Shown: positions 28,889 through 46,845, counted from the first letter of the stretch. The stretch is DNA of 64,000 nucleotides from an uncultured Bacilli bacterium (GCA_934085825.1 CAKOHR010000005.1:3194-67193), one strand, 5' to 3'. Made by a program: numbers and translations. The notes: a model not told the origin generated them from the sequence alone.

Positions 28889-29641
28889 TTAAAAGTTTCT
28901 TATAACTACTAAATAAGGAGCTTCTTCATTAATTGTATTTCTATATTCCTTATAACCTATATTATTTTGTTTCAAATAATCCAGAACAACTTTTGCTTCT
29001 AATTTTCCTTCTGGATGTGGATAAAAAACTATTAAAATAAGTCCATTACTATCTAATATATCAAAACTATTTATAACAGCCTTTAAAGTACTTTCATGAT
29101 TCGTAGTAATAGATTTATCTCCACAAGGAAGATAACCTAAATTAAATAAAATCAACTTAATATTATGTTTATATTCCCATAAAACTTCATTAATTTTATC
29201 ATGACTAACACAAAATAATTCATAGTTATAAACATTATTTTCATCAAGTAATTTTATTGTATTTTCTATAGCAATACTTTGAATATCAAACCCAAAAACC
29301 TTCTTAGATAGACCAGCTAAAAATAATGTATCATGACCATTACCCACGGTCATATCTACCACTATATCATTTTTATTAATATTTTCATTACATATTTTCT
29401 TAACAGTATTTAATATACTTCTATTAAATCCCTGAAAAGTTTTTCTTTTTTTAAACTCCCTTTTAATTTCATCATAATATTTACTATTTATTATAATATT
29501 TTCTTTAACATCTTCCAAAATATCACAAAATAAATGAGTATCTATATTATCTCCATAAATATTAACTTCTTTAACTCCTTTAGGTAAATTAACAATTTTT
29601 TCTTTAAAATCAATATCATTATAATTTAAATCTATCTTCAT
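28889..29641 (-). CDS. Class I SAM-dependent methyltransferase (YtqB/rRNA-methylase-like) with an N-terminal extension
   Basis: Motif I VVDMTVGNGHDTLFLA. Confidence 0.6.
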   Translation of the reverse strand: MKIDLNYNDIDFKEKIVNLPKGVKEVNIYGDNIDTHLFCDILEDVKENIIINSKYYDEIKREFKKRKTFQGFNRSILNTVKKICNENINKNDIVVDMTVGNGHDTLFLAGLSKKVFGFDIQSIAIENTIKLLDENNVYNYELFCVSHDKINEVLWEYKHNIKLILFNLGYLPCGDKSITTNHESTLKAVINSFDILDSNGLILIVFYPHPEGKLEAKVVLDYLKQNNIGYKEYRNTINEEAPYLVVIRNF

Positions 29642-29671
29642 AAAATCACTTCAACTATATTCTATCACAGA

Positions 29672-29884
29672 TTACTTATTTTTAATATTTTTTAATTGTT
29701 TATTTAACTTTTTAATTTTCTTTTCATTTTCTTTAATAATATCAATGTTATTTTTAGTTTCATCATTTAACATATTACACCATTTATCATAATTAACATC
29801 ATTATTTTCATTTTTATAAATAGAATATATTATTACTAAACTTATAATTACAATCATAATAACAGCTATTTTAATCATTAACAT
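29672..29884 (-). CDS. Small single-TM protein
   Basis: ORF with an N-terminal TM helix (IAVIMIVIISLVIIYSI) and a Lys-rich tail. Confidence 0.4.
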   Translation of the reverse strand: MLMIKIAVIMIVIISLVIIYSIYKNENNDVNYDKWCNMLNDETKNNIDIIKENEKKIKKLNKQLKNIKNK

Positions 29885-30113
29885 TTTCCCGCTTTCTAAA
29901 TTTCTTTTTTAAATATAAATTAACTTTTTTCTTTAATATCATCTTTTTTTGTACTTTAATTATTTTTCTATGTTTTTCTAAATTAGTATCAAAGTATATA
30001 TCTTCACCATAATATTTTGTATGTTCTTTACTACCATTTTCACTAAGTAAAAAAATCATAACAAAAGATAAAACCCCAACTAAAACAAAGAAAATTAAAG
30101 ATAAAACTTCCAT
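29871..30113 (-). CDS. Small single-TM protein
   Basis: AGGAGG RBS upstream of the ATG. N-terminal TM helix (LSLIFFVLVGVLSFVMIFLL). Confidence 0.45.
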   Translation of the reverse strand: MEVLSLIFFVLVGVLSFVMIFLLSENGSKEHTKYYGEDIYFDTNLEKHRKIIKVQKKMILKKKVNLYLKKKFRKRENVND

Positions 30114-30238
30114 GTATGTATCCTCCTTTTTTATGGGTGCTCATCGATTATAGCAAAATAATAAATCCAAAACAAGTAAGTATTAATATAAATTATTTTT
30201 CTTTACACAAACTTTAAAAATATTAAAGAACTCTATTA

Positions 30239-31027
30239 CTAGAATTCTTTAATAAGCTTTTTCTCAATTAAAGTAATAATTTTATATAGCAAGAAAGAAA
30301 TAATTAAAAGGATTAATATACCAGCCATAACAAGGCTTAAATTAAATACTTGTGTTCCATAAATGATTAGATAACCAATACCAGCACGACTTACTAAAAA
30401 TTCACCCATGATTACACCTATTAAACTCATTGATATACATAATTTCATACTAGAAATAATTGTATTATATGAGCAAGGTACTACAAGTTTAAAAAGAATT
30501 TGCCTTCTAGTTGCACCAAATGACTTAATTAACTTAAGTTTTACTTTATCAGTATTCATAAAACCATTATATATAGTAATAATACTAATAATTAAATTAA
30601 TAAGCAGTGCCATAACAATAACACTTTTCATATTAGCACCCGCAATTATTATAATAAGGGGACCAAGTGCAACTTTAGGAAGTGAATTAAACATTGTCAA
30701 AAATGGGTCAAGAATGTTAGAAAGTATTGGAATTTCATAAAGAATAACAGCAATTATAAAACCTAATAAAGTACCAAGGACAAATGCAATTAAAACTTCT
30801 TCCAACGTAACAAAAATATGATTAAACAAATTATTTTGCACTGTCAGATTAATGATTGTATCTATAATTTTACTAGGTTTTGAAAAGACAAAACTATTTA
30901 TAATATTTTTATTTGCTAAGTATTCCCAAATTCCAAAGAAAGATACAACAATTAATATTTGCGATATAACTACAATTAACTTTCTTCTTTTAATCCTTTT
31001 TAAAAATTTCTTTTGTTCATTAGACAT
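30239..31027 (-). CDS. ABC transporter permease (NitT/TauT-type)
   Basis: Six hydrophobic segments. Overlaps the ATPase gene by 8 nt. Confidence 0.75.
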   Translation of the reverse strand: MSNEQKKFLKRIKRRKLIVVISQILIVVSFFGIWEYLANKNIINSFVFSKPSKIIDTIINLTVQNNLFNHIFVTLEEVLIAFVLGTLLGFIIAVILYEIPILSNILDPFLTMFNSLPKVALGPLIIIIAGANMKSVIVMALLINLIISIITIYNGFMNTDKVKLKLIKSFGATRRQILFKLVVPCSYNTIISSMKLCISMSLIGVIMGEFLVSRAGIGYLIIYGTQVFNLSLVMAGILILLIISFLLYKIITLIEKKLIKEF

Positions 31028-31766
31028 TTTTATCTAAATCCTTCCAAAGTAAGTCATAATAGTAACCAAATTCTTTTGCTTTTCTATTATTAATCGGGGT
31101 AGATTTATTAGTCAAATTTATTTCATAAACACTTTTAATTTTCGCAGGTCTCTTAGATAAAACAATAACTCTATCAGCAATACTAATAGCTTCTGCTAAA
31201 TCATGAGTAATCATAATAACTGATTTTTTTTCTAGCTTAATAATTTTTAAAACATCATCACTAACTGAAAGCCTTGAAACATAATCTAAAGCTGAAAATG
31301 GTTCATCAAGCATCAAAATATCTGGTTTAAGTGCAAGTGTTCTAATTAAAGCAACTCTTTGACGCATACCTCCGGATAACTCATGAGGATATTTTTCCAA
31401 AAAGTCGCCAAGACCATATTTAATAAGTAAACTTTTAACAAATTCAATATTTTCTTTATTTTTTTTCTTCTCAATATCAAGCCCTAAACAAGCATTATCT
31501 AAAATATTTAGCCAAGGGAAAAGTGCATCTTCCTGAAGCATGTAACCAAGTTTAACTCCATCTTTAATGTTTACTTCACCACTAGTTTTAGTATCAAGTC
31601 CCGCTAAAATATTTAAAAGTGTAGATTTACCACAACCACTTGAACCAACAATGCATAAAACTTCCTCATTATCTAAAGCAAAAGAAAGGTCATCTATAGC
31701 TTTTATTTCTCCTTTTATAGTTTGATAATTTTTACTTAAATTTTTAATTTCTAATATTTTATTCAT
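31020..31766 (-). CDS. ABC transporter ATP-binding protein
   Basis: Walker A GSSGCGKST, signature LSGGMRQRV, Walker B ILMLDEPFSALD. Confidence 0.9.
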   Translation of the reverse strand: MNKILEIKNLSKNYQTIKGEIKAIDDLSFALDNEEVLCIVGSSGCGKSTLLNILAGLDTKTSGEVNIKDGVKLGYMLQEDALFPWLNILDNACLGLDIEKKKNKENIEFVKSLLIKYGLGDFLEKYPHELSGGMRQRVALIRTLALKPDILMLDEPFSALDYVSRLSVSDDVLKIIKLEKKSVIMITHDLAEAISIADRVIVLSKRPAKIKSVYEINLTNKSTPINNRKAKEFGYYYDLLWKDLDKNV

Positions 31767-32748
31767 AGAAATTATTAACTAAAACATTGTATGGAACGTA
31801 TTCATCAAGTAAATCAAAATCTATTAAAAAATCCTCTAAGTTAGTAAATAATCCCTCGCTTATATATGGATTAGGTAGCCAAGAGTCATATTCTTTATAT
31901 CTTTTTATCATTTCTGTTAAGTCCTTAACACTTGTATCTGGAAATTGCCCAATTATATCTTTAGCAACAATATCTGATTCATTATCCATTGTATACTTAA
32001 TTCCTTTATTTATTGCATCAGTAAATTTTTTTATTATATCTTCATTATCTTTTATATAACTTTTACGTGCATAAAAAGCTGTATACGGAACTTCGCCAGA
32101 AAGCATGCCAACAGAAGCAACAACATTTCCATAGCCTTGTTTAACTAAAGCTGTTGCATTGGGTTCAAAAAGATTAACAAAATCACCGACACCACCAATA
32201 AATGACCCTGATAAAGCTGAAAACTCAACAGATGTATTAACATTTATTTTACTAGTATCAATATTGTTTTTCTTAAGAGCATTTAAGAAATTTAAAGCTG
32301 GCATCCCAGTGCTTCTACCCACTAAAATTTCCTTATCATATAAATCTTCTAATTTAAAATCTTTAATTTCTTTTCTAGAAACAATAAATTGACCATCTCT
32401 TTTAGTAAGACCTGCAAAAAGTGTCAAGTAATCACTTTCATCTTGTTTATAAACATATATTGCAGACTCAGCACCAGCAAAACCTATTTCTACATCACCA
32501 GATAAAACTGCACTACTAACCTTATCAGCACCAGGTGTAAGAATAAGTTCTAAATCAATACCATTTTCTTTAAAATAACCTTTTTCTATAGCCACATAAA
32601 GTGGACTATAAAATGAACTATGTGTAACCTCAGCAAGTCTAACTTTAGTTAAAGATGTATTTTTATCCTTTTTAAAGCCAAATGCTAGAAACACCACCCC
32701 AAGTAAAATTACCATGCATAATAATCCAATTATAATTCTTTTTTTCAA
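31759..32748 (-). CDS. ABC transporter substrate-binding protein (NMT1/THI5-like)
   Basis: TTG start after GGGAGG. N-terminal signal/anchor segment. YSPLYVAIEKGYFKENGIDLEL is typical of the NMT1/SsuA-like fold. Confidence 0.7.
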   Translation of the reverse strand: MKKRIIIGLLCMVILLGVVFLAFGFKKDKNTSLTKVRLAEVTHSSFYSPLYVAIEKGYFKENGIDLELILTPGADKVSSAVLSGDVEIGFAGAESAIYVYKQDESDYLTLFAGLTKRDGQFIVSRKEIKDFKLEDLYDKEILVGRSTGMPALNFLNALKKNNIDTSKINVNTSVEFSALSGSFIGGVGDFVNLFEPNATALVKQGYGNVVASVGMLSGEVPYTAFYARKSYIKDNEDIIKKFTDAINKGIKYTMDNESDIVAKDIIGQFPDTSVKDLTEMIKRYKEYDSWLPNPYISEGLFTNLEDFLIDFDLLDEYVPYNVLVNNFYE

Positions 32749-32869
32749 AAATAATTCCTCCCTCTAGGGTAATATATGACGATTAAAAAATTTTGATTAT
32801 ATAACTCTGTCAATAGTTTTTGAAAAAATTGGTGTTAAAAAGGTGACATATTTTAAATAAAATGTTAAA

Positions 32870-34075
32870 CTAATTATGTTGTTTTGAGTTATTCATGCAT
32901 AATGCATAAATAATTCTAATTAGTTTAGTAGAACAGACAGTTAAACAAGCGTAGAAATGTTTACCTTCCTGTTTTTTCTTTAAGTAATAAACATATATTG
33001 AATTTTCTTTATCACACTTTGCAGATAAAGTTATAATATTACGACTACAATTAAATAATACTTTTCTAGCATATCTATTTCCTCTTTTAGAAATAGGGCC
33101 ATGATAATTTATACTTTTATCTGATTGAACTATAGTGGGATCAAGACCGCAACTAGCATTAATTTGTTTAATATTATTGAATCTAGTAGTGCCTTTTAAT
33201 TCAGCAATTATCAAAGATGCTGATAATTTCCCAATACCAAATAATGAGTTAATACATTCAAAATCTTTAGTTTTTTTTGCAAGTTCAATCATTTGGCTTT
33301 TAACTTCATCTTTTTGTTTAGTTAAATCAATAATAATATTTGCTAATTGTTTTAAATTATCGACATCTTTAGAATTTTGATTTACTCCTGGGTATGAAGT
33401 AATTGCGTATTCTTTAATAATATTAGCTTTTCTTTTATAGTAATTAAGATGTCTGTTATTTGTATTAACCATATTATAAACAAGTGCATCAACTCTTTTT
33501 TCTTTTATAATATAAGCAAGTGGAAATTCTTTGATAAAGTTTAATGCGGTTAAATCATATATTTTTCCATCCTTAAAACATAATTCAAATTCTGGGAAAC
33601 ATAGATGTAATAATTCTTTATAACGATTTTTATGTCTGTTTAATCCTTCATCTAGATGATAATGCTGCCTAGATAATTCATTTAGCCTAGTATAAATTTC
33701 ATCTTCAGTATAGTTTCTATCTGGGATACTGCCTTTCCAAAATAAATTAGTTAATTTAATACAGTCTTGTTTATCAGTTTTTGTCTTTCTAATAGTATTA
33801 GTAATTTCTTTACCAATAAGAGGATTAAAAACAATAACATGATAATTATTTTCTTTAAAAAATCTTTCTGGTGCTTTGTGATAAATACTGGTTGCTTCCA
33901 TAACAATAGTTAAGTTATCTTTAATGTTAAGTTTATTAATATTATGATCAATCAGTTCAAAATCAGCTTTATTATGGTTATATTCTGTAGGTCCCAATAA
34001 AACTTCACCAACATCTGAAGATAACATAAACATACTTTTCCCTTTAACAACATCAAGTACTAAAACATACTTCAT
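32870..34075 (-). CDS. IS110-family DEDD transposase/recombinase
   Basis: N-terminal VLVLDVVKGKS and VMEATSIYH (DEDD_Tnp_IS110-like). C-terminal LFGIGKLSASLIIAEL...CGLDPTIVQSDKS...ISKRGNRYARKVL (Transposase_20-like). Confidence 0.85.
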   Translation of the reverse strand: MKYVLVLDVVKGKSMFMLSSDVGEVLLGPTEYNHNKADFELIDHNINKLNIKDNLTIVMEATSIYHKAPERFFKENNYHVIVFNPLIGKEITNTIRKTKTDKQDCIKLTNLFWKGSIPDRNYTEDEIYTRLNELSRQHYHLDEGLNRHKNRYKELLHLCFPEFELCFKDGKIYDLTALNFIKEFPLAYIIKEKRVDALVYNMVNTNNRHLNYYKRKANIIKEYAITSYPGVNQNSKDVDNLKQLANIIIDLTKQKDEVKSQMIELAKKTKDFECINSLFGIGKLSASLIIAELKGTTRFNNIKQINASCGLDPTIVQSDKSINYHGPISKRGNRYARKVLFNCSRNIITLSAKCDKENSIYVYYLKKKQEGKHFYACLTVCSTKLIRIIYALCMNNSKQHN

Positions 34076-34247
34076 ATAATACTTTCTTTCTTAGTTTGAC
34101 TCTTAGTGCTTAAAATTATCTTATCATGCTTGTTATATGGATTCAAGACCTTACTTTCTAAGACTAGATTAATAATAAGATAAGAGACGAGCAGTCATAA
34201 AAATGGATTCAAAGCCCCCTGATATAATCTGCCCTAACTCAAACGCG
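34076..34247 (-). ncRNA. Possible IS110 bridge (guide) RNA region in the 5' non-coding end
   Basis: Inference only. The IS110 subgroup encodes its bridge RNA upstream of the recombinase, and this element has the long non-coding end on that side. Confidence 0.3.
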
Positions 34248-34281
34248 TTTTTTAATCTTTCTTACAAGAAAGATTAAAAAA
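34248..34281. repeat. 34-nt perfect palindrome
   Basis: TTTTTTAATCTTTCTT-AC-AAGAAAGATTAAAAAA. A hairpin with built-in A/T runs on either strand. Confidence 0.8.
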
Positions 34282-34318
34282 TATTGTATCATAAACTAAT
34301 GAATTTTTATTTCATTAA

Positions 34319-34347
34319 TTTACATCTTAAAGTATACATGATATAAT
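34319..34347 (+). promoter_or_regulatory. Promoter for 34374..35000
   Basis: TTTACA, 17-nt spacer, TATAAT with a TGn extension. Confidence 0.6.
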
Positions 34348-34373
34348 TATATGTAGAATATGGGAGGTTCATT

Positions 34374-35000
34374 ATGAAAAATGTATATTTAATAAAACAT
34401 TCAGGCCCATTTGTTGATATAAAAAATTATGATGATTATGAAAATGTATTGTGGGAAGATTACAATAGAAATATGATATTATCATCAGTTGGTGAAAAAA
34501 GGGCAGAAGAATTATGCCATATTGAAGAATTAAATAATATTGATAGAATATTTACAAGTAATTCGGTTAGAGCTATAGCAACAGCTAAATATTTAGCAGA
34601 AAAGAATAATATTAAAATTGAATTGGATAAAAGAATTGATGAAAGAATATTTGGCGTAGAAACATTAAATGATTTACCAAAAGATTTTAATAAGTTATCT
34701 TTTGATGATAAGAATTTTAAAATGGAAAAAGGAGAATCATTTAATGAAGTTGATAGTAGATTTATTAATTTTATAAATGATTTATTAGAACAGGATAGTA
34801 ATAAACATGTTTTAGTTATTCATGGATTGATATTACTTTCTTATTTAGAAACTATTTGTGATTTTAGTTTTGACGGAAATACATTTGATATAAAATACAA
34901 AAATAAAGAAATAATTAATGGAAATCTTAAAAGTCCTAGTGTTTATAAAATAATTTATGATGATAATAAAAAAGTTATAGATGTAGATATAATTAGATAG
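34374..35000 (+). CDS. Histidine phosphatase (phosphoglycerate mutase-like) family protein with a non-canonical active-site motif
   Basis: VYLIKHSGP stands in place of the canonical LvRHGeT. Also SNSVRAIATA and VLVIHGLIL. Confidence 0.5.
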   Translation: MKNVYLIKHSGPFVDIKNYDDYENVLWEDYNRNMILSSVGEKRAEELCHIEELNNIDRIFTSNSVRAIATAKYLAEKNNIKIELDKRIDERIFGVETLNDLPKDFNKLSFDDKNFKMEKGESFNEVDSRFINFINDLLEQDSNKHVLVIHGLILLSYLETICDFSFDGNTFDIKYKNKEIINGNLKSPSVYKIIYDDNKKVIDVDIIR

Positions 35001-35219
35001 GAGATGATAGAATGACAATTAAAGAACAATATATAGAATTACAAAAATCGAGAAAAATTCAATCATCTGATATTTTAAAAAACAAAAAAATAATTGCTTG
35101 GGAATTTTTTTAGAAATTATACAAATGTCAGTAATTTAGAAAAAAATTTATCTTTAAATTTTGTTTTATATTTAGCACCATTGAAAACTATAAGAGGAAC
35201 AAATATGGTTTGTTAGCCA

Positions 35220-35634
35220 GTGGGTGAAAATATAGAGATATATGTAGATAATAATTTTGCAACAACAAATCCAGAATTAACAAATATTCAATTACAACAT
35301 TCAGGAATTCGTAGGAGATGGTTTATGGAATTATTTAAGGGAAAATATTTGAAAGTTGTATTTGTTAATTTTTGTTGTCAAAATTTTCCTGGTAATTGTA
35401 TTATTTCATGTAAAAGAGAATCGTTAAGCAAATTAACAAAATAAGAATGAGAAGAATTAGATATTTTAGAAAGAGTTACTAAAAAGTTGATTAATGTAAC
35501 TATGTTTAATGAATAATTTGTATAGAGATAAACAAACACCACATGTTCATTTCCATTTTATTCCTAGATATGATGGAGAAAGAATAATATTAAATAAAAA
35601 ATATAAAGATAGACATTTTGGATATAATATGTGA
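35220..35634 (+). pseudogene. HIT-family (histidine triad) gene, heavily decayed
   Basis: DKQTPHVHFHFIPRYDGE (HxHxHxx triad) at about 35527-35634. Upstream pieces FPGNCIISCKRESLSKLTK*E*EELDILERVTKKLINV are interrupted by in-frame stops and a frameshift. Confidence 0.6.
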
Positions 35635-35763
35635 AAATAAACATTAAGTAAATTTAAGTGTCAAAAGGATATATTTATAAAAGAAGAGAAAATTGAAATA
35701 TTTAATTTAATGAAAAAAGAATTGAATATAAAATTATAAATTTAAAGTTTTGGAGTTGATATT

Positions 35764-38700
35764 ATGGAAAAGCAAGAATATATTATTAGTTATGTAAAAG
35801 AAAAAATAAATTATTTAAATAATTTAGGAATTTCTGTGTCTGAAGAACAAATAAATGAACTTTTTAATAATCGTATTGATATGACTAAAGATGAATCTGA
35901 TATTATTAATACAATTGATGTTCTTGTGGAAAGAGTAATTGAAAACTTTAATAAAAAACAAGAAGACAGACAAAGATTTATTGAAAAACTTTCTGAGATT
36001 AAAGAATTGCAGGATTTACCTTTACAATATACAGGAATTACTCTTAACAATCAGGATATTGATTTAATGTTGATAGCAACTTCAGAAAATTTGGAAGAAA
36101 CTCTAAAACAAATTACAAATATTAAAACAACTATTGATCCAAATGCTGATATTGAGTCAGAAAGACAGAGAATTTTTGATTTATATATGAGTTCTTTATC
36201 TTCAAGAGTAGATTATTATACAGATAAAAGTATTGAATTATCAAAGAAATTTGAATATCTAAAAACAAGTGAATTATTAAGCCCTGAAGAAATAACTTTG
36301 ATTGATAGAATTGTTTCACAAAGCAAAGATCAAAGAGAGATGGTGACTTACTTAACAAGAATGTATAGTCAAAATCCTGATAGATTACATCAAATATATG
36401 AAACAATAAGAGATTATACACCAATTGAAAAAACTGGGATTATTGGAACAAGTATAGAAGCATATAAAAATTTATATAAACAAATATTACAAAATTATAA
36501 TTCTCTTACAATTGATGGAGAAGAAAAATATGGTTCTTTAGCTTTACAAGACGGAACTTTCGATTTTAAACATTTAAAAAAATCCTTAGATTTTGCTAAA
36601 GCTAACAATAAAAAAGTTAGGTTAAATGCTTTAATATTTTATATGGATTGCCCAGAATATTTATATCAAATGGAAAAGAGTGAACAATCCAAACAATTAG
36701 TAAAACAAAGATTAATGAATTATGTTAGTTCTACAACCAAATTTATTGGTGAAAACGGATATAGTGATGTAGTAAGAAGTTCTGATGTTTTCAATGAACT
36801 ATTAAATAGATACCCTATGGATGGTGAAGTTCCATACCAATATAGAGGTGCAATAAATCAAGAACCATCATTATACAGAGATTTTGATAATGTTAAATCT
36901 GGTTGGTTAAAACATCTAGATATTGAAGATTTATGTGATGTTATTGCTGAAGCTAGAAGGAATTTGCCTAGTGTAGATTTTATGTTTAACGATGATAACT
37001 TAACAGATCCTAGAAAAATTGATGCAAATATAGAATTAATTTCACAAATTAGAAAATATGAAGAAGAACATGGAACCAAATTAATAGATAGTATTGGAAC
37101 ACAAATGCATATAGATAATAATTTATCAAAAGCTGATATAGAAAATATGGTGAGAGGTTTAGCTCAGTTTGGACTACCAATAGAGATAACTGAATTTGAT
37201 ATAGCAATGACAAGAAATGTTGAAGGATTATCTGATATTCAAATAGAAACATTAAGACAACAAAAAATTAATGAGGTATATTCTGTTATAGAACAATTAA
37301 AAGATGAATGTAATATTAGAGGTTTTACAATTTGGAGCAAGACTGATAAACAAAATTTTAGAGTGTCTTTAGCAAATGAAGAAAGAATAAAAAATGGTCT
37401 AGAACCTATAACGACATTACATGGTGGAGCATTTACTGAAGATATGAAACCTAAAAGTAAGGTATATGAGAAAGCTTTATTAAAGAATAATTTTCAATCA
37501 TTTAATTATCATACACATACAAATAGATGTGGACATGCAGGTATTTTAGCAGACAGTGAATATGTTGCGGCAGCGAGGGTAAATGGTATTACACAATTAG
37601 GGTTTTCGGATCATGTTCCTGTTCCTGAATTGGAATATCAAGATGATAATCAAAGAATGCATATCTCTGAAGTGGATGAATATGTTGCAAGTATTAGAAG
37701 TTTGCAACAACAAAATACAGATATGAAAATTAATGTAGGTTTTGAAGCTGAATTTGATCCTATGAAAGAACAATTTTTAGGCGAAATAAGAGAAAAAGTT
37801 GATTATTTAATTTTAGGACAACATTATGTATCTAATGGGCTAAGCAGGGAACAACAAAAAAATAATCCTTATTATCCGTTACAATATGCAAATATCGTTT
37901 GTAAAGCAATGGAAAGTGGATTATTTGATATAGTTGCACATCCAGATATATTTATGCAATTTAGAGATAGCATGGATTCAGAAGAAGCTAAACAACTATT
38001 TGATTCAAATGCTCAAATTGCTAGTCAAGCAATATGTGATAAAGCAAAAGAAATTGGAATACCTGTAGAATTAAATTTTGCTGGCATAGATAAAAATCAA
38101 ATTATGACTGATGGTGAGTATTCTTACCCACATTCAATGTTCTGGAAAATAGCATCAGAAACTGGTGTTCAAGTATTATATGGAATAGATGCCCATACAC
38201 CAAAACAATTTGAAACAATGATGGGGAATAAGCAAGTTGCAGACAAAATTATTGATCCACGAACATTAAATTTAGTAGCACCAAATTATAATCCTGTAGA
38301 AGCTAGAAAAAACAATCCACAATTGCAAGAATTATATGCTAAAGGTCAAGAAAAAGCTATAACATATGAAACTCATTTAGTTACGCAATTAGTAGGTGGA
38401 ATGTTATCTAGATTTCCAGAAGAAACAAGTATGGATGATATTGCTTATGGGACTGAACAATTATTTGAACAAACAAGTATATCTATGCAACAAGAAGCTA
38501 CAAAAAAAGATCAAGATACAGTTTTTGAAATAGAATCTATATCTTCAAATGATTCTTTATCAAAAGAAGAAAAATCATTTCAATTAGAAAGAACAAAACA
38601 AGCAATTCAACATACAAATGAAACTTTGGCACATAGACAAGGTGCTTTAGATAGAGCAAGACAATCTGTTCAATATTCTATTGAAATGGGTTGTAAAACA

Positions 38701-38982
38701 AAAAATGAGGTAGTTACTACAGTTGCACAAATAACTGAAGCAAATACTACTAAAAAAGAAGAAACTAAGGGAAAAATGCAAGAATGTGTCGGTAGAACAA
38801 TTCAAATGAATCAAGGACAACAATTGCAACATGATAAACAAAAACAATTAGTTAGAACAAACAATAATTTTAATAATGCAGGGTTTACAAATTTTATTAC
38901 TTTAGCATTAATGGTAATTTTTGGTTGTGGATTTCTAGCAGGTATTGGATATATGGTATATAAGATTATGATTGGAGGGTAA
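35764..38982 (+). CDS. 1072-aa multidomain protein: helical N-region, GH10-like TIM-barrel glycosidase domain, PHP (HisJ-type) phosphoesterase domain, C-terminal TM anchor
   Basis: GH10-like: FDFKHLKKSLDFAKANNKKVRLNALIF, DVFNEL (acid/base Glu) and PIEITEFDIAM (nucleophile Glu). PHP: FNYHTHTNRCGHA, GFSDHVP, GFEAEF, IVAHPDIF, GIDAHTP. C-terminal TM FITLALMVIFGCGFLAGIGYMVY. No signal peptide. Confidence 0.55.
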   Translation: MEKQEYIISYVKEKINYLNNLGISVSEEQINELFNNRIDMTKDESDIINTIDVLVERVIENFNKKQEDRQRFIEKLSEIKELQDLPLQYTGITLNNQDIDLMLIATSENLEETLKQITNIKTTIDPNADIESERQRIFDLYMSSLSSRVDYYTDKSIELSKKFEYLKTSELLSPEEITLIDRIVSQSKDQREMVTYLTRMYSQNPDRLHQIYETIRDYTPIEKTGIIGTSIEAYKNLYKQILQNYNSLTIDGEEKYGSLALQDGTFDFKHLKKSLDFAKANNKKVRLNALIFYMDCPEYLYQMEKSEQSKQLVKQRLMNYVSSTTKFIGENGYSDVVRSSDVFNELLNRYPMDGEVPYQYRGAINQEPSLYRDFDNVKSGWLKHLDIEDLCDVIAEARRNLPSVDFMFNDDNLTDPRKIDANIELISQIRKYEEEHGTKLIDSIGTQMHIDNNLSKADIENMVRGLAQFGLPIEITEFDIAMTRNVEGLSDIQIETLRQQKINEVYSVIEQLKDECNIRGFTIWSKTDKQNFRVSLANEERIKNGLEPITTLHGGAFTEDMKPKSKVYEKALLKNNFQSFNYHTHTNRCGHAGILADSEYVAAARVNGITQLGFSDHVPVPELEYQDDNQRMHISEVDEYVASIRSLQQQNTDMKINVGFEAEFDPMKEQFLGEIREKVDYLILGQHYVSNGLSREQQKNNPYYPLQYANIVCKAMESGLFDIVAHPDIFMQFRDSMDSEEAKQLFDSNAQIASQAICDKAKEIGIPVELNFAGIDKNQIMTDGEYSYPHSMFWKIASETGVQVLYGIDAHTPKQFETMMGNKQVADKIIDPRTLNLVAPNYNPVEARKNNPQLQELYAKGQEKAITYETHLVTQLVGGMLSRFPEETSMDDIAYGTEQLFEQTSISMQQEATKKDQDTVFEIESISSNDSLSKEEKSFQLERTKQAIQHTNETLAHRQGALDRARQSVQYSIEMGCKTKNEVVTTVAQITEANTTKKEETKGKMQECVGRTIQMNQGQQLQHDKQKQLVRTNNNFNNAGFTNFITLALMVIFGCGFLAGIGYMVYKIMIGG

Positions 38983-38983
38983 T

Positions 38984-40960
38984 ATGAACGAGCCTAATTA
39001 TGGTAAAGAAAAACCTTTATATTTATATAGAGGTGTAATAATTAATTATGATATATTACAATCTTTTAGTTTTTCTGGTGTTGACTTAGTTCCACAACAT
39101 CCACCAGTAATTGATTCCCAAGGAAGAAAAACAGTTGGTGATGGTAATGAATATGGTGTATATATGACAGATCATGAAAATGTTGCAAGAAATGCTTATG
39201 GAAAAGTTAGTTTGTCTGATGGGACTCCTTTAAATCGAGATGTTATGTTTGGTTATGACAAAAGTAGAACAGTAATTCCGTCAATAGGAATTGTTTATAA
39301 AATAAACACAACTGGGCTTGATGTACATATACCATGGATTACTTCTCATTTAAAAGGTCATTATAATAATGGAATGGATGGAGATGAATGGATATCAGAA
39401 ATAGTTCCGGCAAGTAATTATGTTGTAGATGCTGTTACTTTAGGAGATGATACATTACATGAATCCGAAAGTATTAGTGTTGAAAATCCAAAAGAGTTAA
39501 AAACAATTGTTTTAAATAAAATAAAACAAAGAAGGGAAAGACTTGAATTATTTGAAAAGAAAATTGAAAGTTTTTCCGAAAGAGATAGATATCTTTTAGA
39601 TCAATCAAAAATAAATGTTTTAAAATCAATTTATAAACTAAATGGAATCATGGATATAGATCTTAATAAATTTAAACCAAATAGTCCAGATGAATATCTT
39701 GATTACTTAATGGCTATTTCTTATTCAAATGATAAAGATAATATTGATTTTGCCACAATAAGTTATATTCAATCTTTAAAAGATAAAATGAAACAACACA
39801 GTGATATATCTCTTGAAAGTATTATTGAATTTGTTAAAGATGATATATCATTAAATGAAACCAAGAAAAGTGAATTTTTAAACAAAAATGCAGGTAGAGA
39901 TGTTTCAACTATAAATTTTGATAAAAAAAATGAAAGATATAATGAAATATTAATTTTTTTAAATACTGTTGTTAGTAAGAAGTCTCAAAAAACAGATGCT
40001 GAATATCTTGCTGAATATACAGAAAAATTAGATGAATTGAGAATTAAGTATAGACAAGTAGCAAATGAAATTGAAAATTTAATGATAAAAAATAGTCAAT
40101 CTCCTATTGCTGATTATCAAAAACAATTAGAAAATTTAATTAGTCAAAGAGATTTGATTAATGAAAGGATGGAACAAACCAATAGCTCTAGAAAAACTTA
40201 TGAATGGATTATTCAAAATCAAAAAGAAACAGAACATAAAAATAGAATTGGACAGGTTGAAAGATTATTAGGTATTCAGATAACATCTAATGCTGGGTTC
40301 ATTTATGATAATGAATTACAAGTTCCTAGGTCTGTATCTAAAGATACTTCAACTTTAAGACAAGAACAAGGAAAAATAAATCAACAATTAGATGAGTTAT
40401 ATTATGATGGAAAAATAGATATAAAAACTTGGCAAACAATGAAATCAGAAATCGGAAAAGAATATGATAAGATGATTACATCTGCACCAAAACCAGTGAA
40501 TCAGGCTCAATCTAATACACAATCAAGTAATGTAAATAAAAATAATCAACAAAATCCTCAAGGAGAAACAACTCCAATTTCAAAAGAAGAAATTGTTGAT
40601 AAAACGGAGAATATTCCAGAAAGATTTGCATCAGCTTATGACAATGTTTTTGATTCTAAACTTGTTGAAAGTATGAGAGAAAAATATGGATATGCTGATA
40701 TGAGTGAGGATGAGCAAGAAAGATTTGATCAAAAACTTTATCAATCAATGAAAGAGATGAAAGCAGAAGAAAATGTTGAAGATAAAAAATCATCAGCAGA
40801 TTTAAGAAGAGAAGCCTGGCAAAAAATTAGGAAACAATATTTTTCAAATCCGGATTTAGATTTAGAAACAATAATAAGACAACAAAAATTCAATGAAATG
40901 CAAAAAGAAGAAATTGAGCAAATAAATAATGTTGAAGGTCATAGACGAGAAATATTTTGA
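38984..40960 (+). CDS. Large hypothetical protein: globular N-terminal domain (~165 aa) plus a long coiled-coil/low-complexity region
   Basis: GGAGGG RBS before the ATG at 38984. Overlaps the end of the upstream gene. No secure family motif. Confidence 0.5.
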   Translation: MNEPNYGKEKPLYLYRGVIINYDILQSFSFSGVDLVPQHPPVIDSQGRKTVGDGNEYGVYMTDHENVARNAYGKVSLSDGTPLNRDVMFGYDKSRTVIPSIGIVYKINTTGLDVHIPWITSHLKGHYNNGMDGDEWISEIVPASNYVVDAVTLGDDTLHESESISVENPKELKTIVLNKIKQRRERLELFEKKIESFSERDRYLLDQSKINVLKSIYKLNGIMDIDLNKFKPNSPDEYLDYLMAISYSNDKDNIDFATISYIQSLKDKMKQHSDISLESIIEFVKDDISLNETKKSEFLNKNAGRDVSTINFDKKNERYNEILIFLNTVVSKKSQKTDAEYLAEYTEKLDELRIKYRQVANEIENLMIKNSQSPIADYQKQLENLISQRDLINERMEQTNSSRKTYEWIIQNQKETEHKNRIGQVERLLGIQITSNAGFIYDNELQVPRSVSKDTSTLRQEQGKINQQLDELYYDGKIDIKTWQTMKSEIGKEYDKMITSAPKPVNQAQSNTQSSNVNKNNQQNPQGETTPISKEEIVDKTENIPERFASAYDNVFDSKLVESMREKYGYADMSEDEQERFDQKLYQSMKEMKAEENVEDKKSSADLRREAWQKIRKQYFSNPDLDLETIIRQQKFNEMQKEEIEQINNVEGHRREIF

Positions 40961-41187
40961 ATAGAAAAAAGGTAAAGGTTGAAAAAAATAATTAAATTAA
41001 AACACACAAAAGAAGTTAAAAAATATACAATTTTTTTTGAACTTAGAGTAAGTCAATGAAGACCATAAAATAAGTTGTTCTTTGAAATAGTAAACTGTTA
41101 TTAGGTATTCTGCAAAGTAATATTGTAACCTAAATTAGTTAAATAAGAAATCATTTGTTCTGGAGTATTTTGAATATTTTTATGAGA

Positions 41188-42066
41188 TTAAAAATTTTTA
41201 TTCATCAGGTTTTCAAATCTGCTGTAGTCAAAAACCTCACCAGTGAGTAAAATATGGTATGCACTTGTAAGTAGCAATCTAGCTATAGCAATAATTGCTT
41301 TCTTGTGATCACGACGTCGTTTTAATGATTCATGTCTCGCATTAATATATGGGCATGAATTATCTTTAATGGTGCATAAAGCACATTGAACAAGTAAAGG
41401 TTTGATATAAATACCTGCTTTAGTAATTCTAACAGATTTCTTTTTCTTGGCAGATTCATTACATCTAGGAGTCAATCCAGCCCAAGAACAAAGATGTTTA
41501 TCATCAATAAAAGTGTTCATATTTGTACCAATTTCTGGTATAATAAATATAGCTGATATTTCTTTTATACCAGGAATGGTTAAAAGAAGATTAATTTCAG
41601 TTGAATATTTGAGAGCAAGTTTTAAAATTTGTTCTTCTAGTTCATCAATACCTTCATTAATTGAATCGTAATGTTTTAGAACAATATTAATTTTTGATGA
41701 TTGAAATTCGTCAAAATTACCATTGATAGATTTCAAAATCTCTTCTGGTGATGATTTCAAATTTTTGCGAAGTAAAGGTGTGATATCATCTAAAGTTAAA
41801 TTAGGGTTAGAAAGCATTAACTTTAAGATTGATTGAGGTGTTTGCCAAAAACATCACTTACAACATTTGCAATTTGAACATTAGACATTGTAAGAGAGTT
41901 TTGAAATCTATTTTTTTCGCCAGAACGAATATTAATAAGTTTATTTCTGTAACGCATTAAATCTCTTAATTGTCTAATATCTGCAGGTGGCATAAAAGAA
42001 GGTTCAACAAGACCATGCTTAAACATATCGGCAATCCATATTGAATCTTTTTTGTCAGTTTTTTTT
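41188..42066 (-). pseudogene. IS110-family transposase remnant (N-terminally truncated, one frameshift)
   Basis: ..KKDSIWIADMFKHGLVEPSFMPPADIRQLRDLMRYR.. then a frame change near 41820 into LTIPGIKEISAIFIIPEIG...CSWAGLTPRCNESAKKKKSVRITKAG (Transposase_20-like). The DEDD N-domain is absent. Confidence 0.75.
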
Positions 42067-42472
42067 ACCTAGTAGGACATGTTTATTGGAATTGTTAAAA
42101 TTAAGATTCCACTGATAGGATATCCCACTGTATTACTTAATGAGAGGTGGTAAAAATGATAAAGGATGTACATTGTACTGAAAGTAAAAAATAGTAAAAA
42201 TATACTAAAATAATAAACAAGTATGATAAATTTATTAATAAAATATTAAAAGAATATAAGTAAAAACAGCAACATTTCCGATGAAAAAAACTACAAAGCG
42301 GTACTAATTAATAATTTTAATGAATTAAAAGATGTACGAGATAATTTAAGTGCTCCAATCATGTTGCATAATACTAAAGACCTCAAAATGTCAAAGCTTT
42401 ATATTCTTAATGATAATAATTTATATTTGTATACAATAAGTTCAAGAGACATAAATGGTGGTGATAAAAAGT

Positions 42473-43999
42473 ATGAAACTAAAAAAATTTAAAAAAAATA
42501 ATAATAATTTGATTTATTTTGGATCTATAATAGTAGTTTTAACTATTATACTCTTAAGTGTTGGATTTTCCGCTTTTCAAAATGAATTAGCTATTGAAAA
42601 TATAAGTGCTAATGTAAAAATAGATAAAGATGTAAGAGTGACAAAAGTTGGGGTTGAAAGTGTAAACGATGCTACTAGTTATTATGAAGATTATAATGTT
42701 TCTAATATTTCTAGCAGTATTGTATTAAATAATAGTAATTCTTATGTTATTTACAATGTCGAAGTTCATAACTTAGGTAATGTTATTATGGGGATAAGTG
42801 ATGCATCAATTGATAATGAAAATTTAAAATTTGAATTTTTGGATTATAATTTAAAAGATAAAATTTGCGATAATAATCAATGCACTTTAGGGGTAAAAAA
42901 AACATTAAAAATTAAAGTGTCATATAAAGAAGATGCAAATATTAACAATGTTGAAAATAAATTTGTATTAGATTTTAAATTTGGAAGAATTTTTAATATT
43001 ACTTATTATAATATTTCTAACAGTGATACATTTCCTACAGAGATAATAGAGGGTGATACATTAAATTTAAATATACCAAATAAAGAAGATTATCTTTTAA
43101 AGATATTTATGAATAATACGTTGTTATATAATGGCAAAGATTATCAATATACAAACGATAATTTAATCATTCCAAATATTTTGGGCGATATTCAAATTCA
43201 TTACAAAATGCCGATATGTCAAAGGGCAACGCTACTTCATACAGAGGAATGTTTAGGGGGATATTGCTCTGCTATGGGCTATAAAGTGAATGGTAAATAC
43301 GGAACCTCTACCATTACATATGGTTCGTTAGGAACATCTAATATACTTTCACCTGGTGATGCATTTGACTGTGACGTGAATGGGGATGGAATTTATGATT
43401 CAAATACAGAAAGATTTTATTATGTTACTGATATGGAAAAAAATGATAGCATAGCTGTTTTAATTTATTATAATAATGTTAGTGCTGGAAAGCCTGATAA
43501 TGAAAAATATTATCCATATGATAGTTCTAAAGAAAATTGGCATGGACCTAGAAATGCAATAGAACAACTTCCAACTGTTAGCCAATGGAGTAATGTACGA
43601 CTATCAAACACAGAAAGAAGGATAGTAAATGAATATAATACAACAAGTACCAAAGATGGTCATAATTTTCCTGAAGTATTTAGTTATTCGAAGTATGCAG
43701 CACGATTTTTAACACTAGCAGAAGTAAAAAGTCTTGTAGATTTTTATATTCCAACTTGGAAAAATGGAGAATTAGATGATCACCTTTATCTTGTTGAAAA
43801 CACCAATTTTTCAAAAAAAGATAATTCTAAATTTGATGGATATTGGTTAGAAACACCAAGAAACACTATGTCAAACCATAGTTGGATAATTTATGCTACA
43901 GCAAGGCGTGTTCATAGTATAGAAGTACAAAGAACAGATGTTTTAGTTGGTGTTCGTCCTGTAATAGAGGTAGCTAAAAGTGATATTGCATATAAATAA
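42473..43999 (+). CDS. Secreted/surface protein with a SipW-type-like signal peptide and a C-terminal YWL..GVRP module
   Basis: GGTGGTGA RBS before the ATG at 42473. The N-terminus KKFKK..IVVLTIILLSVGFSAFQNE resembles TasA/camelysin-type signals (G.FA.F.D). The C-terminus GYWLETPRN....VGVRPVIEV resembles a domain common in Firmicute surface proteins. Confidence 0.5.
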   Translation: MKLKKFKKNNNNLIYFGSIIVVLTIILLSVGFSAFQNELAIENISANVKIDKDVRVTKVGVESVNDATSYYEDYNVSNISSSIVLNNSNSYVIYNVEVHNLGNVIMGISDASIDNENLKFEFLDYNLKDKICDNNQCTLGVKKTLKIKVSYKEDANINNVENKFVLDFKFGRIFNITYYNISNSDTFPTEIIEGDTLNLNIPNKEDYLLKIFMNNTLLYNGKDYQYTNDNLIIPNILGDIQIHYKMPICQRATLLHTEECLGGYCSAMGYKVNGKYGTSTITYGSLGTSNILSPGDAFDCDVNGDGIYDSNTERFYYVTDMEKNDSIAVLIYYNNVSAGKPDNEKYYPYDSSKENWHGPRNAIEQLPTVSQWSNVRLSNTERRIVNEYNTTSTKDGHNFPEVFSYSKYAARFLTLAEVKSLVDFYIPTWKNGELDDHLYLVENTNFSKKDNSKFDGYWLETPRNTMSNHSWIIYATARRVHSIEVQRTDVLVGVRPVIEVAKSDIAYK

Positions 44000-44025
44000 T
44001 TTATAAGCATTGACAAACTTATAGA

Positions 44026-44372
44026 ATCTTTAACTTCTTTCCAAGAAACAATAAACTGTCCATCTCTTTTAGTAAGACCTTCAAAAAGTGTTAAATAATC
44101 CCTTTCATCTTGTTAATAAACATATATTGCAGACTCAGCACCAGGTGTAAGAATAAGTTCTAAATCTATACCATTTTTTACTGAGCGTAAAGTGGCCATA
44201 TAAAATGAACTATGAGTAATTTCTGACGATTTTACTTTGTTAAAGGTGTATCTTTATCTTTTTTAAAACAAAGTAAGAAAGCAGAAACTCCAAGTAAAAC
44301 CGCCTTGCATAATAATTCAATTATAATTCTTTTTTTTCAAAAATAATACCTTTCTCTAAAGTAATACATGAA
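44026..44372 (-). pseudogene. Decayed second copy of the 5' end, RBS and upstream region of the ABC substrate-binding protein gene
   Basis: Aligns by eye to 32357-32782 (first ~120 nt about 90% identical, the rest more diverged). It has a 57-nt deletion between two copies of TCAGCACCAG that are present in the intact gene, a mutated RBS and indels. Confidence 0.8.
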
Positions 44373-44465
44373 TAGAAACACCATTATGTTATAAAGAAAA
44401 TAACTATATAATTTATTGCTTAATTTAATTAATCATGGTAAAATAACATCATAAGGAGAAACGTT

Positions 44466-44846
44466 ATGAAAAATGAATTAATAATAAAAAAGTGTTTAAA
44501 ATGTGGTGCATTATTTGAAGTAATTAATGATTGCAAATGTGATAAATGTCAAATAAAATGTTGTGAAGAACCACTCACAGAATTAATTCCAAATAGTATT
44601 GATGCTTCATTTGAAAAACACATACCAACATATGAAGTAATAAATGATGAAATATATGTAAAAGTAAATCATGTCATGGAAGAGGATCACTTTATTATGT
44701 GGATAGCTCTAGTAAATGAAACAGCAACTGAAAAAGTTAAATTATTAGTAAATAAACCTGCTGAATGTAAGTTTAAATATATAAAGGGATCAAAATTATA
44801 TGCATATTGCAATAAACATGGCCTTTGGACTTGCAACGTAAAATGA
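44466..44846 (+). CDS. dfx: Desulfoferrodoxin (class I superoxide reductase)
   Basis: N-terminal CxxC...CC desulforedoxin-like motif (CLKCGALFEV...CC). SOR centre II residues EKHIP, HVMEEDHFIMWI and CNKHGLW. Confidence 0.75.
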   Translation: MKNELIIKKCLKCGALFEVINDCKCDKCQIKCCEEPLTELIPNSIDASFEKHIPTYEVINDEIYVKVNHVMEEDHFIMWIALVNETATEKVKLLVNKPAECKFKYIKGSKLYAYCNKHGLWTCNVK

Positions 44847-44863
44847 AAAATCTTGGAGCTAAG

Positions 44864-46402
44864 ATGAAAAAGTATAAAATAATAATTATAATCGGAGTAA
44901 TATTATCATTAATAATATTAGATATTTCTATAGCTTTAATATTTAACACTAGTCCAATAATAAAAATCAGAAATAATAAAAATGATAACTTAACATTATA
45001 TATAGATAAAGGAATACTAACCAAAACTTATAAATGTGCTGATAACACGGTTAAAACTATGCTTAAAACAACAAAATATGAGTGTCATAAAGAAAAAAAT
45101 AATACAATTGAGATTATTGATTTAACTAAAAATAACTCTGATACTTCTTGTTTAAATGAAGAAGAATTTTACAAAGATGATACATATATCTACTATCTAC
45201 CATGTAATAGCAAAAATATAAGTGTTATTTATAATGAAGAAAAATTTGATATTAAAACAGCATTAACCAATAAAATAATTAAATTAACAGACTTAGACAA
45301 ATATAATATTAAATATATAAAAAAAGAAATTCCTAAAGAAGAAATAAATAAAACGATAACAATTTCATTTGATACCAAAGGTGGAAGTAAAGTAGATAGT
45401 ATCTCATTAGATAATAATCAACCCTTTACATTGCCCAAAGAGCCAACATATAATGGCTATATTTTTAAAGGCTGGATAGATAAAAATAACAATAAGATTA
45501 CAAATGAGACTATATTTAATGAAGACACAACTCTTTATGCTATCTGGGAAAAGGTAGACAAAAAGAACAATGTAGTAACAGAAAAACCAACAAATAATAA
45601 TAGTGTGAATAATAATCAAAATAATGAAAATACTAGTAAAGAGCCAGATAAAGTTGATAAACCACAACAAGAAGAACCCCCTAAAGAAACAGAAAAAACT
45701 CAAGCTCAAAAAAACAATGAATATCGAAATCAAATTCAAAACAAATATTCAATTAAAATAGCATATAAAGATGAAATGGACTATTATTCGATGAATGGCT
45801 ATACAAGACAAATAATCAAGGATGATAATGAAATAAATAAGTATCTTATAGAAATAGATAAAGCACTTGCAAAATATCCTGAAGGCTTTTTTAAAGAAAT
45901 GAAAAACTTTAATATGCCAGCAACTATATATTTAGTTAAAAGTATAAGTGGTAATGTATCCGGGGTTACAGATGCTCATATAAAAACAAATATCATAATA
46001 ATGATAGAACCATCACTATTATTTGAATACGTACTTCATCACGAAATAATGCATTATATAGATTCATATATTAGTGTTAAAGGCTATCCAATAGATATAA
46101 ATAAAAGTATGAATGAAGTAAACCCAGATGGCTTTATATATGGAGATGAAAGTAATGATTATGTCTATAATTTCACAGATGTAAAAAATGCTTATTTTGT
46201 ATCAAAATATGGAAAAACAAATTATTTAGAAGATAGAGCAGTTATTTTTGCAGAATTAATGTTTAGAACTTACACAAAAGATTGTTATGCAAAAAATACA
46301 CCTATAAATAAAAAAGCAAACTTTATAAGTTCACAAATAAAAGAACATTTTTCCATTTTAAAAAGTACCGAAAAATATTATTGGGATAGATTTATTAAAT
46401 GA
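44864..46402 (+). CDS. Membrane-anchored surface protein: Listeria-Bacteroides (Flg_new) repeat plus a C-terminal HExxH metallopeptidase-like domain
   Basis: GGAG RBS before the ATG at 44864. TM helix IIIIIGVILSLIILDISIALIF. ISFDTKGGSKV...YIFKGWIDKNN...TTLYAIW repeat. HHEIMHY motif. Confidence 0.55.
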   Translation: MKKYKIIIIIGVILSLIILDISIALIFNTSPIIKIRNNKNDNLTLYIDKGILTKTYKCADNTVKTMLKTTKYECHKEKNNTIEIIDLTKNNSDTSCLNEEEFYKDDTYIYYLPCNSKNISVIYNEEKFDIKTALTNKIIKLTDLDKYNIKYIKKEIPKEEINKTITISFDTKGGSKVDSISLDNNQPFTLPKEPTYNGYIFKGWIDKNNNKITNETIFNEDTTLYAIWEKVDKKNNVVTEKPTNNNSVNNNQNNENTSKEPDKVDKPQQEEPPKETEKTQAQKNNEYRNQIQNKYSIKIAYKDEMDYYSMNGYTRQIIKDDNEINKYLIEIDKALAKYPEGFFKEMKNFNMPATIYLVKSISGNVSGVTDAHIKTNIIIMIEPSLLFEYVLHHEIMHYIDSYISVKGYPIDINKSMNEVNPDGFIYGDESNDYVYNFTDVKNAYFVSKYGKTNYLEDRAVIFAELMFRTYTKDCYAKNTPINKKANFISSQIKEHFSILKSTEKYYWDRFIK

Positions 46403-46422
46403 TAAAAAAGAAAGGAGGGCAA

Positions 46423-46782
46423 ATGAAAAATACTTTATTATTAAAAATAATTGCTGTAGTAATTGTTTTAATAGGAGTTGGATTTGGAATATACAAAAGC
46501 ATAACCAAAGAAAAAGATCTTGTTTTTGAAGCTACAATTAAAGATGTTGTAACTAGAGATAATAAATATACTATTTTAGTTGAAAAAAAAGACAAAGATA
46601 ATGTCATAGAATACGAATTTGAAATAGATAACAAAACTAAAATAATATATGAAAATAAAGAAGTTACATTAGATAAATTAAAAGCAAATCAACAAGTATC
46701 TATAACAGCAGAAGATGTAATGATGCCAAGTGATCCTGCTAAGTTAGCTAATGTTAAAAAAATAGTTATCTTAAAGGACTAA
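46423..46782 (+). CDS. Small membrane-anchored protein
   Basis: GGAGGG RBS. N-terminal TM helix LLLKIIAVVIVLIGVGFGIY. Confidence 0.5.
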   Translation: MKNTLLLKIIAVVIVLIGVGFGIYKSITKEKDLVFEATIKDVVTRDNKYTILVEKKDKDNVIEYEFEIDNKTKIIYENKEVTLDKLKANQQVSITAEDVMMPSDPAKLANVKKIVILKD

Positions 46783-46785
46783 AGA

Positions 46786-46812: not shown

Positions 46813-46845
46813 AAAAAATTTTGCTATAATAAAATTGTGATTTAT

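Follow-up and report, generated by a model that had tools for sequence, protein, structure and literature searches.

The elements e14 and phage 21 of Escherichia coli integrate in the icd gene and carry a replacement gene end. In elements of this type, the 3′ end of the target gene is duplicated, and the integration involves a tyrosine integrase and a defined attachment (att) core. Foreign DNA is also gained through homology-facilitated illegitimate recombination (HFIR), which combines one homologous exchange with one illegitimate joint (PMC3240628) and is known in natural transformation or conjugation from Acinetobacter baylyi, Streptococcus pneumoniae, Pseudomonas stutzeri, and E. coli. Here we describe a locus that shares features with both. 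Within a stretch of 64,000 nucleotides (nt) from an uncultured Bacilli bacterium (GCA_934085825.1 CAKOHR010000005.1:3194-67193), referred to below as the window, about 11 kb of DNA lies between an intact and a decayed copy of the 5′ end of a gene for the substrate-binding protein (SBP) of an ATP-binding cassette (ABC) transporter. With a confidence only slightly better than even, we favour an origin of the HFIR kind, in which DNA from a related lineage recombined homologously within the ABC operon at one end and was joined illegitimately to the resident sequence at the other, at 44024/25. Positions are counted from the first letter of the window, and the features are listed in Table 1.

The SBP gene is the first in an SBP-ATPase-permease operon. 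The two copies of its 5′ end are 11.6 kb apart in the same orientation, and as both are on the minus strand they form direct repeats. A preliminary description of this DNA had regarded 44026-44372 as a degraded duplicate of 32357-32782, about 90% identical over the first ~120 nt. Pairwise alignment, with blastn and a repeat finder, bears this out with significant similarity: 91% identity over 123 nt between 32355-32477 and 44022-44144 (E 2e-41), 98% between 32525-32567 and 44135-44177, and 80% between 32597-32779 and 44188-44371 (E 2e-31). The homology does not end at 32782 and 44372 as had been thought; weaker similarity continues for ~25 nt, to ~32808/44398, across a TATAAY −10 box that is kept upstream of the SBP gene in all relatives. 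A further candidate extension, past the insertion sequence (IS) called IS-A and into the starts of a histidine-phosphatase-family gene (HisPhos) and dfx (34276-34397 against 44376-44489, 63%), was rejected as chance similarity of AT-rich sequence and ribosome-binding sites (RBSs), and the upstream region of HisPhos is native to its own gene module.

The second copy has lost its function. A 57-nt deletion, reported previously and located here by the drop in offset between the copies from 11667 to 11610, falls exactly between two TCAGCACCAG repeats (32468-32477 and 32525-32534 in the intact copy). There is a second deletion of ~19 nt together with single-base indels, the RBS has changed from GGGAGG to GAAAGG, and the translation contains frameshifts and six stops in the former frame. 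Because of these deletions, indels, stops, and the RBS change, which had in part been noticed before, the second copy is a dead fragment, and the stub at 44022-44398 should be annotated as a pseudogene fragment.

One genome per species was scanned for comparison, giving 80 related loci (cited by L numbers), all from metagenome-assembled genomes (MAGs) of uncultured gut ‘Bacilli/Tenericutes’, including ‘Firmicutes bacterium CAG:460’. The host is an uncultured gut bacterium with a reduced genome, from a clade with RF39-like relatives such as the latter. SBP orthologues share 60-94% amino acid (aa) identity with the window across the 80 relatives, and the closest (92-94%) are those of L002, L003, and L005. 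These three carry the empty site that the preliminary description had proposed to look for: their gene order is orf257-orf127-Flg-dfx followed by SBP-ATPase-permease-methylase-MMPL, the cargo is absent, and dfx and SBP diverge from each other 125 nt apart. The decayed copy and the next 93 nt (44373-44465) align with their dfx-SBP intergenic region all the way to dfx, with 96-97% identity over 44389-44463, and the dfx region itself (44464-44763) is 100% identical to L002. On the basis of this alignment, the decayed copy is the resident gene start in its original place, and the sequence beyond 44372 is the native intergenic region, as had been suspected.

The two copies also differ in allele type. 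In a maximum-likelihood (ML) tree built on SBP nt 1-392, another comparison suggested earlier, the decayed copy joins L003 and L005 with a support of 98/100 and a long terminal branch of 0.2; the intact copy joins the alleles of its own species beside L002 and L001. Of 93 aligned sites that distinguish the copies, 50 show the decayed copy in the state of a close relative, and the other 43 are private to it (~11% raw); the intact copy is never private. We read the 43 private sites as probable decay and the 50 as allelic from the outset. Furthermore, the region upstream of the intact copy is of an ‘ACCC’ type, 77% identical to the ‘ACTT’ type of L002, L003, and L005, whose own upstream regions are 97-99% identical to one another. 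Since the copies are different alleles, not sisters, the insert is an import and not a duplication made within the genome. Empty sites, native position, and allele types agree with the earlier proposal that a replacement 5′ end was brought in and the original one displaced and left to decay.

The identity of the flanks indicates how far the imported DNA may reach. Left of ~31400 the window is 96-99% identical to L003 at the nt level, and right of 44400 it is 93-100% identical to L002, L003, and L005. Mismatches with L003 fall from 22 per 100 nt at 31600-31501 to 0-3 per 100 nt at 31400-31001. Backbone genes have a synonymous divergence (dS) of 0.08-0.16 from L003, L002, and L005; in comparison with L002, dS is 0.36 for the intact SBP and 0.49 for the 5′ half of the ATPase gene, or 3-4 times the backbone value. 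From this pattern of identity and dS, a diverged tract would begin at ~31400-31515, a boundary that is suggestive, take in the 5′ end of the intact SBP and the cargo, and finish at 44024.

At the other end of the cargo lies orf514, an intact surface-protein gene, the homologues of which in relatives share 86-92% aa identity. It is the last gene of an operon, orf217-SipW-DUF5305-orf514, an intact version of which lies immediately upstream of this ABC operon in L092, L094, L095-97, and L103, and L012 holds a 237-nt remnant of orf514 in the same slot. Relatives bearing orf514 are 87-92% identical to the window in this gene, and 75-77% in the ABC operon. Because the orf514 operon is native upstream of the same ABC operon in relatives, yet the ABC operon itself is only 75-77% identical, the donor was probably a related lineage with another version of the same variable slot.

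The structure as a whole is that of a donor half (the operon up to the SBP 5′ end, the cargo, and orf514) joined to a resident half (SBP nt 392 to 1, the intergenic region, and dfx onwards), and such a join calls for one homologous exchange and one illegitimate joint. In the history that we favour, the starting point would be an L003-like backbone in which dfx and SBP were still divergent neighbours at the distance of the empty sites (125 nt). Incoming DNA from a related lineage would have contained a different allele of the ABC operon and, upstream of it, an already scrambled variable region. One end would have been resolved by ordinary homologous exchange within the ATPase gene, at ~31400-31515, and the other by an illegitimate joint from just past the orf514 stop to resident SBP nt ~392. 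The incoming DNA would thereby have supplied the −10 box, RBS, and 5′ coding region of SBP, keeping the operon whole, and the resident promoter and first 392 nt would have been stranded beside dfx. There the stranded copy would have decayed, through ~43 private substitutions, the 57-nt and 19-nt deletions, frameshifts, six stops, and a spoiled RBS. Both IS110-family elements would be truncated passengers, with no part in making the junctions. We infer that the incoming DNA was linear, as in HFIR, and the exact crossover and the order of IS insertions and deletions are likewise probable reconstructions.

Three observations weigh against this history. The donor haplotype was not found among the 80 related loci, where no more than fragments occur: L012 has its orf514 remnant, L027 an IS end, and L016 a PHP gene. 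All close relatives are mosaic in the SBP operon, with L002 and L003 only 84-91% identical there, for which reason the left boundary is suggestive and not proven; the switch at ~31400-31515 may be an unrelated recombination scar. In addition, the divergence private to the decayed copy equals or exceeds the entire synonymous divergence between the window and L003, so that the event may predate their split, with L002, L003, and L005 having lost the insert secondarily. A mirror reading, with the dfx side and the SBP stub as the imported part, was ranked low, as both far flanks are equally backbone-like; it is also opposed by the stub being the backbone (L003/L005) allele and by the 5′ tract from SBP to ATPase being the diverged part.

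The principal rival, which we regard as unlikely though worth weighing, is a Campbell-type insertion, in which a circle bearing SBP from ~−60 to +392 together with the cargo entered by a single crossover in the 450-nt segment. The topology is exactly what would follow if a 5′ gene fragment had recombined in a single crossover: the native upstream region stays with the truncated copy, the full copy is preceded only by what would be circle-borne sequence, and the two copies are different alleles. However, a crossover inside the repeat does not predict a diverged tract that seems to continue ~900-1000 nt beyond it, to ~31400-31515, and it is this apparent extension of ~1 kb that disfavours the model. 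Furthermore, the cargo has no replication, excision, or recombinase function able to make a circle, and the truncated IS-A would be unable to form one.

Somewhat less probable again is that the filled state is the older one, the double copy having arisen, by either of these two routes, before the split from L002, L003, and L005, and the cargo having later been lost through recombination between the direct repeats or re-import of an allele without the interruption. The private divergence of the decayed copy (~11% raw, ML branch 0.2), equal to or above the window-L003 synonymous value of 0.08-0.16, makes early insertion with later loss possible, and L002 combines an upstream region of the decayed type (‘ACTT’) with a coding 5′ end of the intact type, as repeat-mediated deletion would give. 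Yet rates taken from 122-390 nt are very imprecise, and alleles of the SBP 5′ end are often shuffled anyway. A single late insertion is more parsimonious, since the site is empty in each of the three close relatives sampled and the decayed copy is specifically of the L003/L005 type.

Searches for dedicated machinery at the junctions gave nothing. Homology to L090, L092, and L095 ends at the orf514 stop (43999/44000) and SBP homology (nt ~392) begins at 44025; the 25 nt between them had no match in metagenome contigs in an exact-pattern scan of the orf514 3′ flank. No tyrosine or serine recombinase is encoded in 32783-44021, where Pfam scans of all cargo open reading frames (ORFs) show only two IS110 DEDD transposases, and no att core or inverted repeat is shared between 32808-32815 and 44000-44025. 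The recombinase or att-like core whose presence at the junctions had been raised as a possibility is thus missing from both. The SBP repeats, at 350-450 nt, 80-91% identical, and with allelic differences, are unlike a short identical att core. An Rfam scan of 28000-48000 at E ≤ 1 returned nothing, and the cargo at 34374-41000 had no match in phage and plasmid collections.

Table 1. Features of the insert and its flanks, by position in the window.
Feature	Position	Strand	Details and evidence
Probable homologous crossover in ABC ATPase gene, left limit of imported tract	31400..31515	.	Switch in mismatch density and dS
NMT1/THI5-type SBP gene, intact	31759..32748	-	329 aa, TTG start; Pfam NMT1 4e-21
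Intact copy of duplicated segment	32355..32808	-	−10 box, 5′ untranslated region, RBS, SBP nt 1-392
Candidate hybrid promoter for intact operon	32796..32824	-	Consensus scan 10/12
IS-A, IS110-family element	32815..34340	-	Pfam DEDD_Tnp_IS110 and Transposase_20; right end truncated
IS-A transposase	32870-34075	-	401 aa, ORF intact
HisPhos, histidine-phosphatase-family gene, intact	34374..35000	+	208 aa; Pfam His_Phos_1 8e-19
Remnant, N-terminal 99 aa of 284-aa gene	35009..35300	+	tblastn of L120 orf284, 74-82%
HIT-like (HVHFHFIPR) 144-aa gene, frameshifted pseudogene	35325..35724	+	tblastn of L120 orf144, 56-77%, two frames
GH10-PHP fusion protein gene	35764..38982	+	1072 aa; Pfam Glyco_hydro_10 3e-31, PHP 6e-12
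orf662, partner gene of GH10-PHP	38972..40960	+	74% aa identity to L098 664-aa gene
IS-B, stump of second IS110-family transposase	41188..42026	-	ORFs of 209 aa and 67 aa; Pfam Transposase_20 6e-17, DEDD tail 1.5e-4
SipW-like signal peptidase remnant, last 25 aa	42076-42150	+	blastn, tblastn
DUF5305 remnant, aa 278-376	42201-42486	+	~760 nt internal deletion; blastn, tblastn
orf514, intact surface protein	42455..43999	+	Last gene of relatives’ orf217-SipW-DUF5305-orf514 operon
25-nt unmatched stretch, TTTATAAGCATTGACAAACTTATAG	44000..44024	.	Ends at proposed illegitimate joint 44024/25
Decayed resident copy, pseudogene fragment	44022..44398	-	Native promoter region, RBS, SBP nt 1-392
dfx, desulfoferrodoxin-type, native divergent neighbour of SBP	44466..44846	+	Pfam Desulfoferrodox 3e-11

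The cargo is not one mobile element; its homologies show a decayed patchwork of three modules that are found separately elsewhere. The import of DNA into the 5′ part of the SBP gene stands as first proposed, but the idea of one single foreign segment does not; part of the patchwork, the orf514 operon, is at home in this same neighbourhood in related lineages. Nor are GH10-PHP, orf662, and orf514 the orphans of a single island, since each belongs to a module with homologues elsewhere.

The first module begins with HisPhos, the assignment of which is upheld by Pfam and which has homologues of 74-85% aa identity in other contexts (L120-L125). The 284-aa gene, here reduced to a remnant, comes after HisPhos in other genomes, and the module is intact in other genomes and contexts (L120-L124). 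The ‘HIT pseudogene’ named earlier is indeed frameshifted, and is a copy of a 144-aa gene with an HxHxH motif that is intact elsewhere, but the HIT assignment itself rests on a weak Pfam match (E = 0.12). In L120, at 11891-13474, an intact HisPhos-orf284-HIT-like-orf188 module lies 1.4 kb from a gene for a large serine recombinase of 527 aa, which hints that in some genomes the module travels on an integrative element. The second module, the GH10-PHP gene (both domains of which are confirmed) and orf662, is 85-88% identical at the nt level to L098, where the 664-aa homologue of orf662 likewise comes right after GH10-PHP. There it is preceded by a 188-aa gene, the same gene that closes the HisPhos module in L120 and L124. 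No Pfam domain was found in orf662. In another sample of the same species (L089, 6531-8506), with DNA 99.97% identical over 13.6 kb, orf662 is called as two products of 322 aa and 307 aa, which points to a frameshift or stop polymorphism within the population.

The third module is that of orf514. The preliminary description had listed a surface protein with a SipW-type signal, but it missed the SipW and DUF5305 remnants just upstream, which match L092, L090, and L095 at 86-92% in blastn. The orf514 family has more than 2000 members in gut metagenomes, and its genes normally follow those for a SipW-like peptidase and DUF5305. Over its C-terminal half, orf514 is ~50-58% identical to proteins (homologues P0088-P0119) with an N-terminal prepilin-type N_methyl motif (PF07963).

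Both IS110-family elements are truncated. IS-A had been called intact, which holds for its transposase ORF and its left end, 265 nt that are complete and common to more than 1400 relatives, but only ~55 nt remain of its right end, which breaks off within a hairpin at ~32815. Full copies are ~1.62 kb (L116-L119, L106-L115) and have a right end of ~150 nt, terminating in AGAAAGTCACA, so that ~95 nt are missing here, and IS-A should be annotated as a truncated IS. The second element, IS-B, was correctly recognized as a remnant, lacking the N-terminal DEDD domain and the 5′ end. The two share 28% aa identity over 86 residues only and no nt similarity, and IS-B is unrelated to IS-A.

The truncated end of IS-A is joined to SBP position ~−66, and the join generates a candidate hybrid promoter. 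This has a TTCAAA −35 box within the IS remnant, as placed by alignment of IS right ends, and, after a spacer of 17 nt, the native −10 box TATAAT, which is conserved; it may be the current promoter of the operon. The left end of IS-A closes with CATG at 34340, adjoining an ATTATAT flank. In IS-A-family copies (the window, L106-L119, and L027), the left end always finishes with CATG beside ATTATA(Y), across more than 10 unrelated contexts. This flank is TATAAT on the other strand, and the IS end gives TTTACA 17 nt off; the predicted outward promoter at 34319-34347 scores 11/12, and both in the window and in L027 it faces the neighbouring gene. Copies also differ by compensatory changes (AATC/GATT versus ATTC/GAAT) in a 34-nt hairpin of the left end (34249-34282).

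A site-specific or IS-mediated origin was also considered, in which a recombinase, either the IS110 enzymes or an integrase since lost, would have moved the cargo as a genomic island or composite transposon, and the SBP duplication would be an att-like target duplication. This is improbable. Two IS110-family genes in the same orientation bracket the block from HisPhos through GH10-PHP to orf662, the HisPhos module is found near a large serine recombinase gene in L120, and L013 shows the ABC operon as a target of a serine recombinase. However, IS-A and IS-B are unrelated; both are truncated, and neither is at the right junction, from which IS-B is 2.2 kb away. Where IS-A is intact, its copies have inserted no more than their own 1.6 kb, beside ATTATAY; the insert encodes no tyrosine or serine recombinase, and the repeats, long and made of different alleles from the outset, do not resemble an att core.

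Exact matches to the transposase and orf514 proteins were found on 18 and 15 contigs, respectively, from independent samples, always in the same context, and across both junctions the loci of these samples are 99.5-100% identical; in 15-18 independent metagenome assemblies the arrangement is fixed. An assembly artefact, that is, a chimeric join of two strains’ contigs at their common SBP sequence, is scarcely credible, for although the source is probably a MAG and the copies are different alleles, both junctions recur at this identity in the 15-18 contigs from independent samples and assemblers, and the deletions and stops of the decayed copy are absent from every functional allele.

Other rearrangements have affected the same operon in related genomes. 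In L013 (11403-16630), a 5.2-kb element that encodes a large serine recombinase, GtrA, a PMT_2 glycosyltransferase, and a GT2 splits the ABC ATPase gene at residue 139, and the ATPase is cut at the same residue (~139-142) in L021, L022, L023, L029, L033, and L035, near locus position 11340-11400. The shared cut position suggests that the operon contains an attachment site used recurrently by serine recombinases. In homologous operons the NMT1-type SBP is cut to its C-terminal 178 aa (L101/L102, ~15132-15893) or missing (L103, 6718-7079), with the ATPase and permease remaining, and the 5′ end of the SBP gene appears to have been eroded repeatedly in the clade.

Throughout the clade, the region upstream of the ABC operon serves as a variable slot that holds surface-protein cassettes. 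Those seen in it are the SipW-DUF5305-orf514 operon, dfx-Flg, and HisPhos/GH10-PHP blocks. It is conceivable, though we think it rather doubtful, that the SBP 5′ end and promoter act as a recurrent recombination anchor at which species of the clade exchange surface-protein and accessory cassettes. If so, one-sided recombination would rank as a major way in which organisms that are not known to be competent gain genes, and the window a fixed, datable example. In a more exotic variant, aberrant IS110 (bridge-RNA) recombination may have captured and inserted the block.

Set beside described systems, the event is of a known kind, in which one-sided recombination adds genes and partly duplicates the target, and involves no new mechanism or element. 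Its value is as a clean, datable natural footprint of ~11 kb gained without dedicated integration machinery, in which the interrupted operon was kept working. The target gene is partly duplicated around the insert, with the SBP ORF intact and the displaced 5′ fragment at the far junction. As with e14 and phage 21, the insert supplies a substitute end that keeps the target gene functional and a displaced, divergent partial copy is left at the far junction; the difference is that here the 5′ end is replaced, together with promoter and RBS, an integrase is absent, and the cargo is incoherent. A Campbell insertion of a suicide vector with a 5′ gene fragment likewise gives a promoter-proximal truncated copy, the insert, and a full-length copy, but no circular vehicle is evident here and the diverged tract seems longer than the repeat. 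The IS110 family, with its DEDD transposase, long left end, site specificity, and lack of terminal inverted repeats, is represented by IS-A in its domains, 265-nt left end, and ATTATAY flank; however, the right end of IS-A is truncated and fused to the SBP promoter region, as of a passenger and not the cause of an 11-kb insertion. The likeness to HFIR lies in a probable homologous anchor (the ABC operon), a proposed illegitimate joint (44024/25), foreign DNA beside the anchor, a related lineage as donor, and no need of a recombinase gene or att site. It differs in that the locus is only an old natural footprint in an uncultured gut lineage, with an insert of ~11 kb that is larger than typical laboratory products.

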